IMG/VR virus record: IMGVR_UViG_2698536628_000011
DNA: 5,125 nt
DNA from: a virus
Lineage: Duplodnaviria; Heunggongvirae; Uroviricota; Caudoviricetes
Direction: 5' to 3' (one strand)
This document shows, in pieces, positions 1,572-5,125 of this stretch; the first letter of the stretch is position 1, and every line of letters begins with the position of its first letter. The notes below the pieces were generated by a model. The model saw nothing but the letters and a program-made list of their open reading frames with translations. It did no database searches and was not told the origin of the DNA. Made by a program: the position numbers and the translations under genes.

Positions 1572-1595
1572 AACCTGCTTCGGCAGGTTTTTTTA
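1572..1595 (+). terminator. Rho-independent terminator of the repressor gene
   Basis: Stem CCTGC (1574-1578) / GCAGG (1583-1587) with loop TTCG, extendable by A:T pairs, then a run of 7 T (1588-1594), 12 nt after the repressor stop codon. Confidence 0.7.
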
Positions 1596-1598
1596 TAC

Positions 1599-1627
1599 TT
1601 GACAATGTACCCTTGAGATACATAATG
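1599..1627 (+). promoter_or_regulatory. Near-consensus sigma70 promoter pointing rightward, away from the repressor gene (PL-like)
   Basis: TTGACA at 1599-1604 (6/6 consensus), 16-bp spacer, CATAAT at 1621-1626 (5/6 to TATAAT). Predicted start near 1633-1634. Sits immediately after the repressor terminator. Confidence 0.6.
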
Positions 1628-2455: not shown

Positions 2456-3280
2456 ATGTCTCAGAACTTAGACGCAACCGCAATTAATCAAATCCATGCC
2501 CTTATTTCTGCTCAGGGTGTTAATGAAATTATCAGTAATATTGGTGCCGATGCTGTGGCATTGCCTGAGAATTTCCGCATTCATGATCTGGAAAAATTTA
2601 ATTTAAATCGCTTCCGTTTCCGTGGTGCGCTTTCCACTGCCAGCATCGATGACTTTACCCGTTATTCTAAAGATCTTGCAGATGAAGGCACCCGCTGCTT
2701 TATCGATGCCGATAATATGCGAGCCGTCAGTGTGCTTAACCTGGGTACTATTGATGAACCAGGTCACGCAGATAACACCGCCACCCTCAAACTGAAAAAG
2801 ACAGCACCGTTTTCTGCTCTGTTGTCTGTTAATGGCGAGCGTAACTCCCAGAAGTCACTGGCAGAATGGATTGAAGACTGGGCCGACTACCTTGTGGGCT
2901 TTGATGCTAATGGTGACACCATTCAGGCAACCAAAGCGGCTGCGGCAGTCCGTAAAATCACAATTGAAGCAAACCAGACCGCTGATTTTGAAGACAATGA
3001 CTTCAGCGGCAAACGCTCCCTGATGGAGTCTGTCGAAGCGAAGACCAAAGACATTATGCCAGTGGCATTTGAATTTAAATGCGTTCCGTTTGAAGGCCTG
3101 AAAGAACGTCCGTTTAAATTACGCCTCAGCATTATCACTGGCGATCGTCCTGTACTGGTTCTGCGCATTATTCAGCTGGAAGCGATGCAGGAAGAAATGG
3201 CTAACGAATTTCGTGATCTGCTTGTTGAGAAATTCAAAGACAGCAAAGTAGAAACCTTTATTGGTACTTTCACCGCCTGA
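2456..3280 (+). CDS. yfdQ: YfdQ-like prophage protein (DUF-type, function unknown), 274 aa
   Basis: Track ORF 2456..3280. Shine-Dalgarno GAGGA at 2445-2449, 6 nt before the ATG. Length and N-terminus ([21 protein letters not shown]) match my recollection of E. coli CPS-53 prophage YfdQ; this is recollection, not a search. AT-rich candidate promoter region directly upstream (about 2400-2440). Confidence 0.85.
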
Positions 3281-3292
3281 TTTCATTACTGC

Positions 3293-3314
3293 AAATGCCC
3301 CTGCGGGGGCATTT
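3293..3314 (+). terminator. Intergenic stem-loop between the yfdQ-like and yfdR-like genes (partial terminator or attenuator, or RNA processing site)
   Basis: Perfect 9-bp stem AAATGCCCC (3293-3301) / GGGGCATTT (3306-3314) with loop TGCG, starting 13 nt after the stop codon. The downstream tract (ATGGAAAC) is only weakly U-rich, so termination is probably partial. Confidence 0.4.
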
Positions 3315-3408
3315 ATGGAAACGTAATTAACTCAATAATCACCGGATGGTGAGAGCTTCCTTTTAGCAGAATTCAGCGCGGTGCAGCGCATATAAAGTGG
3401 AGAACGAA

Positions 3409-3945
3409 ATGTCATTTATTAAAACTTTTTCCGGGAAGCATTTTTATTATGACAAGATAAATAAAGACGACATCGTGATTAACGATATCGCAGTTTCCCT
3501 TTCAAATATCTGTCGCTTTGCAGGACATCTTTCACACTTCTACAGTGTCGCCCAGCATGCGGTGCTTTGCAGCCAGCTGGTGCCGCAGGAATTTGCTTTT
3601 GAAGCGTTAATGCATGATGCAACAGAAGCATATTGCCAGGACATCCCCGCGCCACTGAAACGACTTCTTCCTGACTATAAACGGATGGAAGAAAAAATAG
3701 ACGCCGTAATCCGTGAGAAATACGGGTTACCTCCTGTTATGAGCACGCCAGTGAAATATGCCGATCTCATCATGCTGGCAACCGAACGCCGCGATCTCGG
3801 ACTTGATGATGGCTCTTTCTGGCCTGTATTGGAAGGTATCCCGGCAACAGAGATGTTCAAAGTGATTCCACTGGCACCGGGCCATGCCTACGGGATGTTT
3901 ATGGAACGCTTCAACGAGTTATCGGAATTACGCAAATGTGCATAA
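3409..3945 (+). CDS. yfdR: HD-domain 5'-deoxynucleotidase, YfdR-like, 178 aa
   Basis: Track ORF 3397..3945 begins at a GTG. I prefer ATG at 3409 because GGAGA (3399-3403) lies 5 nt upstream, giving 178 aa starting MSFIKTFSGKHFYYDK. HD signature present: His40, His50 and the His69-Asp70 pair in ALMHDATEAY (nt 3613-3618). Confidence 0.85.
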   Translation: MSFIKTFSGKHFYYDKINKDDIVINDIAVSLSNICRFAGHLSHFYSVAQHAVLCSQLVPQEFAFEALMHDATEAYCQDIPAPLKRLLPDYKRMEEKIDAVIREKYGLPPVMSTPVKYADLIMLATERRDLGLDDGSFWPVLEGIPATEMFKVIPLAPGHAYGMFMERFNELSELRKCA

Positions 3946-4814
3946 CTCATGTAGTTAGTTTTTCTGGCGGGAGAACATCTGCATATCTTGTTCACCTGAT
4001 GGAAGAACAAAGAAAGGCTGGCAATAACGTCTGCTACATCTTTATGGATACCGGTTGCGAACATCCGCTGACATACCGCTTTATTCGGGAGGTTTTGAAG
4101 TTCTGGGGCATACCGCTAACTGTGTTGCAGGTCGATATAAATCCAGAGCTTGGGCAGCCAAATGGTTATACGGAATGGGAACCAAAGGATATTCAGACGC
4201 GAATGCCGGTGCTTAAACCGTTTATGGACATGGTTAAAAAGTACGGTACGCCATACATCGGCGGCGCATTCTGTACTGACAGGCTAAAACTCACCCCTTT
4301 CACGAAATATTGCGATGACCATTTTGGGCGAGGGAATTACATCACATGGCTCGGTATTCGTGCGGACGAACCCCGTAGGCTGAAACCGAAACCTGGCGTC
4401 CGGTATCTTGCCGAGCTGTCAGATTTTGATAAGTCGGATGTTATCCGGTGGTGGCAAAAACAACCTTTTGATTTGCAAATCCCGGAGCACCTCGGGAACT
4501 GTGTTTTTTGCATCAAAAAGTCAACGCAAAAGCTGGGGCTTGCATGTAAAGACGAACCTGGTCTGATGCGGGTTTTTAATGAACTGGTTACAGGCAAACA
4601 CGTCAGGGATGGTCATCGCAGAACAGGTAAAGACGTTATGTACCGTGGTCACCTGACGCTTGACGGGATTGCCAGAATGTATGCCGACAGCGACTACAGA
4701 AGTTTGTATCAGGCGATGGTGCTGGCCAAGCGGTTTGATACTGGTTCGTGTTCCGAATCATGTGAAATCTGGGGTGACCAATTGGAGTTGAAATTCGAAG
4801 AGGTCGTGGCATGA
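3936..4814 (+). CDS. PAPS-reductase-like PP-loop (adenine-nucleotide alpha-hydrolase superfamily) protein, 292 aa
   Basis: Track ORF 3936..4814. N-terminal PP-loop motif SFSGGRTS (residues 8-15, nt 3957-3980). Cysteine pairs C189-x2-C192 (nt 4500-4511) and C272-x3-C276 near the C-terminus. The start overlaps the end of the yfdR-like gene by 10 nt, suggesting translational coupling. Confidence 0.85.
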   Translation: MCITHVVSFSGGRTSAYLVHLMEEQRKAGNNVCYIFMDTGCEHPLTYRFIREVLKFWGIPLTVLQVDINPELGQPNGYTEWEPKDIQTRMPVLKPFMDMVKKYGTPYIGGAFCTDRLKLTPFTKYCDDHFGRGNYITWLGIRADEPRRLKPKPGVRYLAELSDFDKSDVIRWWQKQPFDLQIPEHLGNCVFCIKKSTQKLGLACKDEPGLMRVFNELVTGKHVRDGHRRTGKDVMYRGHLTLDGIARMYADSDYRSLYQAMVLAKRFDTGSCSESCEIWGDQLELKFEEVVA

Positions 4815-5014
4815 CAATCGTAAAAACCCATACCGGTACCGTGATCACCAAAGATGGCCCGCAGGTAAAAAAATTGCACCAAACAGAGCGGATGTGGGTC
4901 GTTGGCAAAAACGAGTTTTACCACAAAGAAACTGGACGCCGCCATTTTGCAGAAAATACGCGCCGCCGACTGCTGTTAGACACCATCAAGCCTATCGAGG
5001 TGAAGCATGTTTAA
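4811..5014 (+). CDS. Small hypothetical protein, 67 aa
   Basis: Track ORF 4811..5014. ATGA start/stop overlap with the preceding gene (4811-4814) and AAGAGGT Shine-Dalgarno at 4799-4805. Basic, lysine/arginine-rich product. No family recognised. Confidence 0.65.
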   Translation: MTIVKTHTGTVITKDGPQVKKLHQTERMWVVGKNEFYHKETGRRHFAENTRRRLLLDTIKPIEVKHV

Positions 5015-5125
5015 ACAGAACGAAAAAGCTATCGCTCAAATTGCTGATTATATCCCGCGTGCGTGCCGGGGTATGCAGTTGCAGGAAGCCAAAGCGCGCC
5101 TGGAGAAAAAAATTGCGCTCTATAT
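5007..5125 (+). CDS. Partial CDS (N-terminal 39 codons, continues beyond window end): hypothetical protein
   Basis: ATG at 5007-5009 preceded by GAGGTG (4997-5002). Overlaps the stop of the upstream ORF by 8 nt (5007-5014). Frame is open to the window end, translating MFKQNEKAIAQIADYIPRACRGMQLQEAKARLEKKIALY. Confidence 0.5.
   Translation, partial: MFKQNEKAIAQIADYIPRACRGMQLQEAKARLEKKIALY

Follow-up and report, generated by a model that had tools for sequence, protein, structure and literature searches.

Which reaction is catalysed by the product of the ninC-like gene in the stretch of phage DNA analysed here (5,125 nucleotides, hereafter the window; Caudoviricetes, IMG/VR record IMGVR_UViG_2698536628_000011), and does this reaction belong to sulfur assimilation? 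The question reaches beyond a single locus: ever since the lambda genome was sequenced, its ORF ninC has lacked an explanation, the family is very common, and in viromes its members are routinely mislabelled as "auxiliary metabolic genes" of sulfur assimilation. The evidence described below, which is comparative throughout, points to DNA-directed sulfur or adenylation chemistry for counter-defence and not to sulfur assimilation.

The gene (3936..4814, plus strand) was defined from the list of open reading frames and its translation; it starts with ATG and encodes 292 amino acids plus a stop, and its product is a PP-loop protein of the PAPS-reductase/DndC/SspD-like type. The DNA of the gene is 100% identical to prophage DNA of E. 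coli O26:H11 (NC_013361.1), in which RefSeq gives the same 879-nt CDS (WP_000335005.1) and assigns its product to the PAPS reductase family. With NinC of lambda imm434 the protein shares 78.7% of its amino acids over its full length (residues 2-292), and it matches the PHROG 424 profile (E 7e-94, residues 5-291) as well as Pfam PAPS_reduct (PF01507, E 9.3e-9), a similarity to family profiles far beyond chance; 5050 homologues were found at E<1e-5. The signature of the family, consisting of the PP-loop, DTG.EHP.T, C113, NCxxC and a CxxxC in the tail, is complete in the protein and is invariant or nearly so across the homologue alignments. The protein belongs to the PP-loop ATP pyrophosphatase superfamily: its fold is of the Rossmann-like alpha/beta type (AF2 model, mean pLDDT 86.8), and near the N-terminus strand 1 is followed by a loop of the SGGxD[ST] type. 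Structure matches in BFVD were either unnamed proteins or proteins labelled "PAPS reductase". The ORF thus encodes an intact, stand-alone member of about 290 amino acids of the phage lambda NinC family. The first-pass annotation had correctly described a PP-loop protein with two pairs of cysteines but did not recognise that it belongs to this long-known family. The gene itself is already known; it is an ordinary catalogued copy that adds nothing beyond RefSeq. In lambda, ninC is non-essential (PMC10695390), and an established function of NinC was not found in the accessible literature.

The gene is part of a prophage early operon, in which it lies between yfdR and ead/Ea22-like genes. The upstream gene yfdR (3397..3945, plus strand), encoding an HD-domain 5'-deoxynucleotidase, overlaps the start of the ninC-like gene by 10 nt with its stop end, and a downstream ORF of 67 amino acids (4811..5014, plus strand; PHROG 1226) shares its first 4 nt (ATGA) with the stop end of the ninC-like gene. 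Further upstream, a near-consensus sigma-70 promoter (TTGACA-16-CATAAT) was predicted on the plus strand at 1599..1626, just downstream of the cI/LexA-like ymfK; a terminator-like hairpin precedes it at 1572-1589 and the genes that follow it are co-oriented up to the integrase. Judged from this arrangement, it is probably the pL-type early promoter of a yfdP-yfdQ-yfdR-ninC-like operon. A role of YfdR as conserved partner was rejected, since of this pair Stx phages have only the ninC-like gene, their match to the window beginning at position 3934, and the K-12 prophage CPS-53 has the unrelated yfdS at this place. An Rfam search of the window revealed no RNA element. RefSeq has no annotation for the minus-strand ORFs at the gene (4337-4597, 4636-4908 and 4709-4945), which were regarded as chance occurrences.

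To define the conserved residues, 54 diverse homologues with identities down to 28% were aligned. The translation confirmed the PP-loop SFSGGRTS at residues 8-15 (3957..3980, plus strand), in which S10, G12 and S15 show no variation and the conservation of G11 and T14 is at least 90%. The near absence of an N-terminal extension, which had been remarked on before, is real: homologues begin with MINVVSFSGGRTS or MHQVVSFSGG and RefSeq places the start at the same codon. In hhalign the loop aligned with the degenerate loops of CysH (SSSFGIQA) and APS reductase (SFSGAEDV), but it is closer than these to the ATP-using form. It has no canonical Asp (SGGRTS versus SGGxDS), and therefore ATP pyrophosphatase activity is not guaranteed; the corresponding loop of PptA from Vibrio phage vB_VhaP_VH-5, a distant NinC relative (profile E 4.5e-6) of solved structure (PDB 21fy), for which a literature search found no publication, reads SCGAPS. 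A putative nucleotide-binding motif, DTGCEHPLT (residues 38-46; 4047..4073, plus strand), is common to (P)APS reductases as DTG..(F/H)PET; its counterparts in the alignments are DTGylfPETY in CysH and DTGrLHPETY in APS reductase. Of its residues, G40 and E42 do not vary, T39 and T46 are conserved to at least 90%, and among closer relatives D38 and H43 are invariant as well. The third motif, GIRADEPRR (residues 140-148; 4353..4379, plus strand), corresponds to the loop rich in Arg of (P)APS reductases, GxRRxQSxxR, and aligned with GqRrdQS of APS reductase; G140, R142, D144, E145 and R148 are invariant, as is K118. The alignment with CysH and APS reductase covered residues 3-146 only.

Ten cysteines are present in the translation (residues 2, 33, 41, 113, 126, 189, 192, 204, 272 and 276). 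Both pairs that the first-pass annotation had singled out, C189-x2-C192 and C272-x3-C276, are present and conserved, with C189, C272 and C276 invariant and C192 at least 90% conserved among the 54 homologues, but a fifth cysteine, C113, was missed and the pairs are not equivalent. C113 (4272..4274, plus strand) is part of the motif FCTDRLKLTP (CT.R.K..P) and is invariant in both homologue alignments. It aligned (hhalign, probability 96.7%) with a cysteine of Pseudomonas APS reductase, the first in ECCGIRKIEPL and an Fe-S ligand in that enzyme, only one Cys being present at this site of the NinC-like protein; its counterpart in PptA lies in CTTQLK. The C189-V-F-C192 pair (4500..4511, plus strand) is located in the folded core of the AF2 model within GNCVFCIKK, of which N188, C189 and K195 are invariant and which aligns with NNCVGCVKG of PptA. 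That it corresponds to the Fe-S motif SIGCEPCTR of APS reductase is suggested by the motif alone: the C-terminal halves of the two proteins gave no significant alignment (hhalign probability 0.25%), and a pairwise local alignment was no better than shuffles, 493 of 2000 scoring as high. C272-SES-C276, on the other hand, lies in a disordered C-terminal tail (residues 266-292; 4731..4811, plus strand; pLDDT <50 for 266-276 and 278-292) that contains GSCSESCEIW; PptA ends with ECSLVC. A downstream CxxxC was found in 114 of the 132 cluster representatives that have NCxxC, the remainder being truncated or CxxxxC-type variants.

Genes of the NinC family are non-essential accessory genes of early operons in temperate and lytic phages and of conjugative plasmids. 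They were found in Stx-converting phages, in hundreds of vibriophages, among them V. crassostreae phages of the collection of Piel et al. 2022, and on Acinetobacter conjugative plasmids; a 1.8-kb region holding the ninC-like gene matched 3096 of 5426 complete E. coli genomes. An association with DNA methyltransferases recurs. Fusions of the family domain were seen with Dam (PF05869), which may stand at either end, and with a D12 methyltransferase (PF02086), and at 14 of 60 diverse IMG/VR viral loci a methyltransferase is fused (9 Dam fusions) or immediately adjacent (5 loci with Dam, C5 or MT-A70). In phage Oslo a Dam gene overlaps the ninC start, at locus L088 an MT-A70 gene overlaps the stop of the ninC-family gene, and on the Acinetobacter plasmids an orphan N-6 methylase is encoded two genes away. 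At the 60 viral loci other neighbours serve replication and recombination, for example NinB, DnaB and NinG. The association with methyltransferases, seen at about a quarter of the loci, could also come about simply because anti-restriction genes gather in a single hotspot.

The best match among defence families was SspD (PADLOC, E 2.9e-15), which covered profile positions 2-121 of 277 and only the N-terminal half of the NinC-like protein; PptA matched the same profile at positions 7-202. Weaker PADLOC matches were BrxP (1.4e-4) and DndC (4.6e-4), and with the NCBIfam DndC model (TIGR03183; E 0.0097) the protein reached 14.8 bits, far below the cutoff of 290.4. Because SspD is the best defence match and DNA methyltransferases are fused in both orders or encoded next door, a nucleic acid is favoured as substrate, and the same suggestion of the first-pass annotation is strengthened by these data.

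We tentatively propose, with confidence slightly short of even, that NinC-family proteins are stand-alone, ATP-dependent sulfur-transfer enzymes which work on DNA and which phages and plasmids use for counter-defence. The N-terminal Rossmann-like domain would bind ATP via the SGGRTS loop and DTG.EHP.T, and the enzyme would adenylate an oxygen on a nucleic acid, most likely a backbone phosphate of DNA, as in phosphorothioation of the DndC/SspD/TdpC type. C113, C189 and C192 may hold a [4Fe-4S] cluster, less likely Zn, beside the active site, comparable to APS reductase, TtuA, NcsA and LarE. The flexible tail with C272 and C276 could reach into the active site, in the manner of the catalytic cysteine in the tail of PAPS reductase, and there deliver sulfur as a persulfide or resolve a covalent intermediate. 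The resulting mark would be an epigenetic counter-defence that shields incoming or replicating DNA of the mobile element from Dnd/Ssp-type or restriction systems, and the orphan DNA methyltransferase that often acts beside NinC, or is fused to it, may supply DNA targeting. A role against Dnd has support at second hand: two articles (PMC13551039; PMC10945359) credit Piel et al. 2022 with a PAPS reductase of a vibriophage that counteracts Dnd.

One point against the proposal is that the known phosphorothioation writers depend on a P-loop NTPase as partner (DndD, SspC or BrxC) as well as on a subunit for DNA recognition (PMC12914056). Neither an NTPase of the DndD/SspC/BrxC type nor a DNA-recognition or nicking subunit is encoded in the 20-kb prophage context, and no NTPase partner, recognition or nicking subunit or sulfur donor was found among the 25 commonest of the 46 Pfam families matched by immediate neighbours at the 60 viral loci; none of the linked genes encodes a cysteine desulfurase. 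NinC-family proteins might each write a sulfur-containing mark on DNA, phosphorothioate-type or new, as a single, self-sufficient polypeptide that works without a DndD/SspC-type ATPase and sometimes borrows a fused or adjacent methyltransferase for targeting; this stronger form of the proposal we regard as doubtful, with a modest chance of being right. A further point against the proposal is that, in the decades for which lambda DNA has been in use, no phage-specified sulfur modification is known to have been reported.

Two alternatives are each rather unlikely, and to the same degree. The first leaves DNA out: NinC would modify RNA, for example as a [4Fe-4S] tRNA thiolase like TtcA, TtuA or NcsA that tunes translation, or would act on a free nucleotide as a nucleotide-pool enzyme together with YfdR. 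The fusions and adjacent genes argue against this, since they involve DNA methyltransferases of four families, as does the closest profile, that of the DNA-modifying SspD; adjacency to yfdR is not conserved, and a Pfam search of the protein did not detect THUMP, the TilS C-terminal domain or the MnmA barrel. The second keeps DNA as substrate and a PP-loop enzyme acting on it, but with chemistry that does not involve sulfur, for example amidation, transfer of another group or adenylation alone; the cysteines would make up a Zn site of structural importance and a tail with a redox or regulatory function. It is consistent with structural neighbours that include the non-sulfur PP-loop enzymes TilS, GMP and NAD synthetases, QueC and Cap9, with the lack of a linked sulfur-donor gene, and with CxxC plus a distal Cys being also a common Zn pattern, e.g. 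in QueC. A function like that of QueC in 7-deazaguanine synthesis was itself rejected, since the structural match is weak and no queD, queE, folE, tgt or dpdA is linked.

A third possibility, more improbable still, is that NinC acts as a decoy or competitor, a DndC/SspD mimic which binds the host's Dnd or Ssp partners or the sulfur donor and disables defence without modifying phage DNA. The protein is indeed homologous to the DndC/SspD subunit of those very systems and comes without partner genes of its own, and the anti-Dnd role credited to Piel et al. 2022 would fit here too. NinC is not mentioned in the re-appraisal of Dnd (PMC10853773). However, the PP-loop, DTG.E, the Arg loop and the cysteines are conserved down to 28% identity, which suggests selection for enzymatic activity and argues against a decoy. 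The family is also abundant in hosts without Dnd or Ssp, as the frequency among E. coli genomes given above illustrates, and the fusions to methyltransferases that look active suggest that the two act on DNA together.

Finally, a true assimilatory (P)APS reductase that serves as auxiliary metabolic gene, reducing APS or PAPS to sulfite and boosting host cysteine during infection, is very improbable: the Pfam PAPS_reduct match, the APS and PAPS reductases as top PDB matches in sequence and structure, the alignment of C113 with an Fe-S ligand and a Cys-bearing flexible tail that recalls the catalytic tail of CysH stand against a score of 19.4 bits with the NCBIfam CysH equivalog (NF002537; cutoff 154), a profile alignment that ends at residue 146 with C-terminal halves that cannot be aligned, a PP-loop closer to the ATP-using form, a tail without the catalytic ECG[LI]H motif with which CysH and APS reductase end (KRECGLHEG and KECGLHAGN), neighbours that are DNA methyltransferases and replication or recombination genes, with no cys genes at the loci examined, and a cysH already present in E. 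coli. K-12 cysH adjoins cysI, and a cysJIH or cysDN context was not found around the ninC-like gene in its early operon. The first-pass annotation, which had argued against sulfate assimilation, was right in this respect.

If the proposed DNA-directed counter-defence is true, the way in which such genes are counted in virome studies changes and a widespread anti-Dnd/Ssp or anti-restriction mechanism is added. If, beyond that, the proteins are single-polypeptide writers, an epigenetic mark for counter-defence would have been overlooked in lambda itself, in Stx phages and in prophages carried by more than half of the sequenced E. coli.

Among known systems, lambda NinC (nin-region ORF-290; PHROG 424) has the same size, PP-loop and five cysteines as the protein described here. 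The gene positions differ: in lambda, ninC is flanked by ninB and ninD within the pR operon, whereas in the window and in Stx phages the gene is located in the early-left arm between repressor and integrase. APS reductase of P. aeruginosa (PDB 2goy) and CysH superpose with about 160 of the 292 residues and have a different genomic context. TtuA, NcsA and LarE, the [4Fe-4S]-dependent PP-loop sulfur transferases, belong to other sub-families with other Cys motifs and RNA or cofactor substrates and do not have the tail Cys pair. DndC and BrxP are members of the same PAPS-reductase-like PP-loop branch but are longer (about 450-480 and about 780 amino acids, respectively, versus 292) and depend on DndD/DndE or BrxC, which are missing around the ninC-like gene. 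SspD, the PAPS-reductase-like ATP pyrophosphatase of single-strand phosphorothioation by SspABCD, is of similar length (277 model positions), but it is encoded in host defence islands, whereas NinC is phage- or plasmid-encoded without sspA, sspB or sspC as neighbours. PptA is shorter (250 amino acids) but carries the same signature as the NinC-like protein, with EEHP in addition to the SCGAPS, CTTQLK, NNCVGCVKG and C-terminal ECSLVC segments, and is likewise the product of a phage early-region gene.

The ninC-like gene (3936-4814, plus strand) starts with ATG and encodes a protein of 292 amino acids. Translation placed the PP-loop SFSGGRTS at residues 8-15 (3957-3980, plus strand) and cysteines at residues 2, 33, 41, 113, 126, 189, 192, 204, 272 and 276; the first-pass annotation had thus described the ORF, the loop and the cysteine positions accurately. 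The nearly absent N-terminal extension that it remarked on is genuine, since homologues in the alignment of relatives start with MINVVSFSGGRTS or similar and an identical CDS is annotated in RefSeq. The only Pfam match was PAPS_reduct (residues 5-72, E 9.3e-9), and PHROG 424 (E 7e-94) and PHROG 33262 (E 5e-91), both labelled "phosphoadenosine phosphosulfate reductase", matched the protein end to end. Genes annotated as NinC in Stx-converting phages share 92.6% DNA identity with this gene, and NinC of lambda imm434, encoded between ninB and ninD, shares 78.7% protein identity. By these identities, the protein is assigned to the lambda NinC family, whose gene has been known since the lambda sequence and is dispensable in lambda (PMC10695390). 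Since this copy, although intact, is already annotated and its family is both very common and long known, it is not novel in itself; what remains of interest is the biochemistry of the NinC family, which is directly testable by lambda genetics.

Bases 3300-5125 recur with 100% identity in prophages of E. coli O26:H11 strain 11368 and of many other EHEC genomes, and a match to them was found in 3096 of 5426 complete E. coli genomes. The annotated context is a lambdoid, CPS-53-like prophage with the cro-like ymfT on the minus strand and, on the plus strand, ymfK (cI/LexA-like repressor), yfdP, yfdQ, yfdR, the ninC-like gene, small ORFs, ead/Ea22-like genes and the integrase, an order which places the ninC-like gene in the early-left arm. 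Directly after ymfK come a terminator-like hairpin (1572-1589, plus strand) and then a near-consensus sigma-70 promoter (TTGACA-16-CATAAT, 1599-1626, plus strand), which together are the probable site of the pL-type early promoter for a yfdP-yfdQ-yfdR-ninC-like operon. A run of 126 N (2160-2285) lies inside yfdP (approximately 2028-2390), as placed by comparison with NC_013361.1. Upstream of the ninC-like gene, yfdQ (2456-3280; DUF2303, PHROG 210, E 1.4e-91) and yfdR (3397-3945; an HD-domain 5'-deoxynucleotidase with a strong PHROG 318 score, below Pfam cutoffs) matched no PADLOC defence model. The start of the ninC-like gene overlaps the stop of yfdR by 10 nt and its own stop overlaps a 67-aa ORF (4811-5014, plus strand; PHROG 1226, no assigned function) by 4 nt (ATGA), through which that ORF is translationally coupled. 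In Stx phages, similarity begins only at the first base of the ninC-like gene (from 3934 onward) and runs to the end of the window, so that the 67-aa ORF accompanies the gene, and in K-12 CPS-53 (7512-7874 of locus L174) the slot behind yfdR, likewise with a 10-nt overlap, is taken by the unrelated yfdS and yfdT. Judged by these comparisons the gene is a mosaic cassette; yfdR as a conserved neighbour is ruled out by the Stx phages and by K-12 CPS-53, which has yfdS instead.

Among 38 relatives with at least 51% identity, C113, C126, C189, C192 and C276 were invariant and C272 was at least 90% conserved. Across 54 relatives down to 28% identity, S10, G12, S15, G40, E42, C113, K118, G140, R142, D144, E145, R148, N188, C189, K195, C272 and C276 were invariant and C192 was at least 90% conserved. 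The downstream CxxxC was present in 114 of the 132 cluster representatives bearing NCxxC, the others being truncated or having CxxxxC-type variants. Conservation in all three sets bears out the two pairs, C189/C192 and C272/C276, to which the first-pass annotation had drawn attention, but a fifth invariant cysteine, C113, had been overlooked. The family loop SGGRTS has Thr where the canonical SGGxD[ST] has Asp, and PptA of a Vibrio phage has SCGAPS; as read from these motifs, the family as a whole deviates systematically from the loops of classical ATP pyrophosphatases.

Fusions to DNA adenine methyltransferases were found in 6 of 150 cluster representatives (five Dam, PF05869; one D12, PF02086), with the Dam domain at either end. 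In a survey of 60 diverse IMG/VR loci, each carrying the gene in full and with its flanking ORFs called, nine had Dam fusions and five more an adjoining DNA methyltransferase (one Dam, three C5, one MT-A70), giving 14 of 60 with a methyltransferase fused or immediately adjacent. Coding overlaps occur too: of a Dam-like gene with the ninC start in Salmonella phage Oslo, and of an MT-A70 gene with the stop in a prophage (L088). Further neighbours were replication/recombination genes, among them NinB, DnaB, pol A, YqaJ and NinG; neither a cysteine desulfurase nor a DndD/SspC-like ATPase was among the 25 commonest neighbour families of the 60 loci. Relatives also reside on conjugative elements, namely a Photobacterium F-type T4SS element (L090, 4001-4939) and 138 Acinetobacter MOBF/MPF_F plasmids. 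In the Acinetobacter plasmid examined, pOCUAc19-1 (5983-6756 and 7997-8773 of locus L093), the gene belongs to an array of small accessory ORFs that all point one way, with an orphan N-6 DNA methylase two genes off; the array also holds an H-NS and a thermonuclease gene and resembles an anti-defence or leading region.

The reading best supported is that of a stand-alone enzyme, related to DndC and SspD, that would use ATP and have a counter-defence role. With ATP it would adenylate an oxygen of a nucleic acid, most plausibly of a DNA backbone phosphate; a metal site formed by C113, C189 and C192, probably a [4Fe-4S] cluster, together with a mobile tail carrying C272/C276, would then transfer sulfur or resolve a covalent intermediate. 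For phages and plasmids this would be an early-expressed epigenetic counter-defence. Against this reading stand the lack of partner NTPase or DNA-recognition subunits and the PP-loop without the canonical Asp, and lambda DNA is not known to carry such a mark. Furthermore, only about a quarter of the loci show the methyltransferase association, which could be explained by hotspot co-location. Two papers (PMC13551039 and PMC10945359) credit Piel et al. (Nat Microbiol 2022) with showing that a vibriophage PAPS reductase helps the phage to evade host Dnd, which makes this evidence second-hand; the V. crassostreae phages of that collection encode clear NinC-family members, Dam fusions included. The broader proposal of the first-pass annotation, chemistry on a nucleotide or nucleic acid rather than sulfate assimilation, survives, since the cysteines are conserved and the protein does not group with assimilatory PAPS reductases of the ordinary kind. 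RNA or a nucleotide as substrate is a rival reading.

For comparison with (P)APS reductases, Pseudomonas APS reductase genes and E. coli cysH were used. Profile-profile alignment of the NinC family with APS reductase gave a probability of 96.7%, over residues 3-146 only, and with CysH alone 91.9%. The loop SGGRTS aligned with the degenerate loops of CysH (SSSFGIQA) and APS reductase (SFSGAEDV), and C113 (FCTDRLKLTP) with the first cysteine of ECCGIRKIEPL of APS reductase, a motif reported to provide two ligands of its [4Fe-4S] cluster (Kopriva 2002; Chartron 2006). GNCVFCIKK resembles SIGCEPCTR of APS reductase by motif; hhalign of the C-terminal halves gave a probability of 0.25% and pairwise scores no better than shuffles. 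Since homology of the two motifs could not be shown, the Fe-S site is putative. A rival reading has the enzyme carry out DNA chemistry that does not involve sulfur, with Zn in a structural site. The best defence-system profile match was SspD (E 2.9e-15, positions 2-121 of 277); BrxP and DndC were weak. Against the NCBIfam DndC model (TIGR03183) the protein scored 14.8 bits, below the cutoff of 290.4. Nor can it be classed as DndC or SspD, because their partner genes are missing and known phosphorothioation systems depend on a P-loop NTPase (PMC12914056). A further rival is a decoy of Dnd/Ssp for which catalysis would be irrelevant. A true (P)APS reductase serving as auxiliary metabolic gene is unlikely, as the score against the NCBIfam CysH equivalog (19.4 bits) is below the cutoff of 154 and the catalytic ECGLH motif is not present in the protein, placing it outside the ordinary assimilatory PAPS reductases.

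A PDB sequence search retrieved chain 21fy_C, "PptA", with E 0.86 for the protein alone and 4.5e-6 for the family profile. By tblastn, pptA (250 aa) was located at 3995-4747 of the Vibrio phage vB_VhaP_VH-5 locus (L002), directly following the RNA polymerase gene. A literature search found no publication on PptA or PDB 21fy; others appear to be pursuing the family already (PDB 21fy; Piel 2022). PptA aligns with positions 7-202 of the SspD profile and shares with NinC a signature of PP-loop (SCGAPS), EEHP, CT..K (CTTQLK), NCxxC (NNCVGCVKG) and C-terminal CxxxC (ECSLVC).
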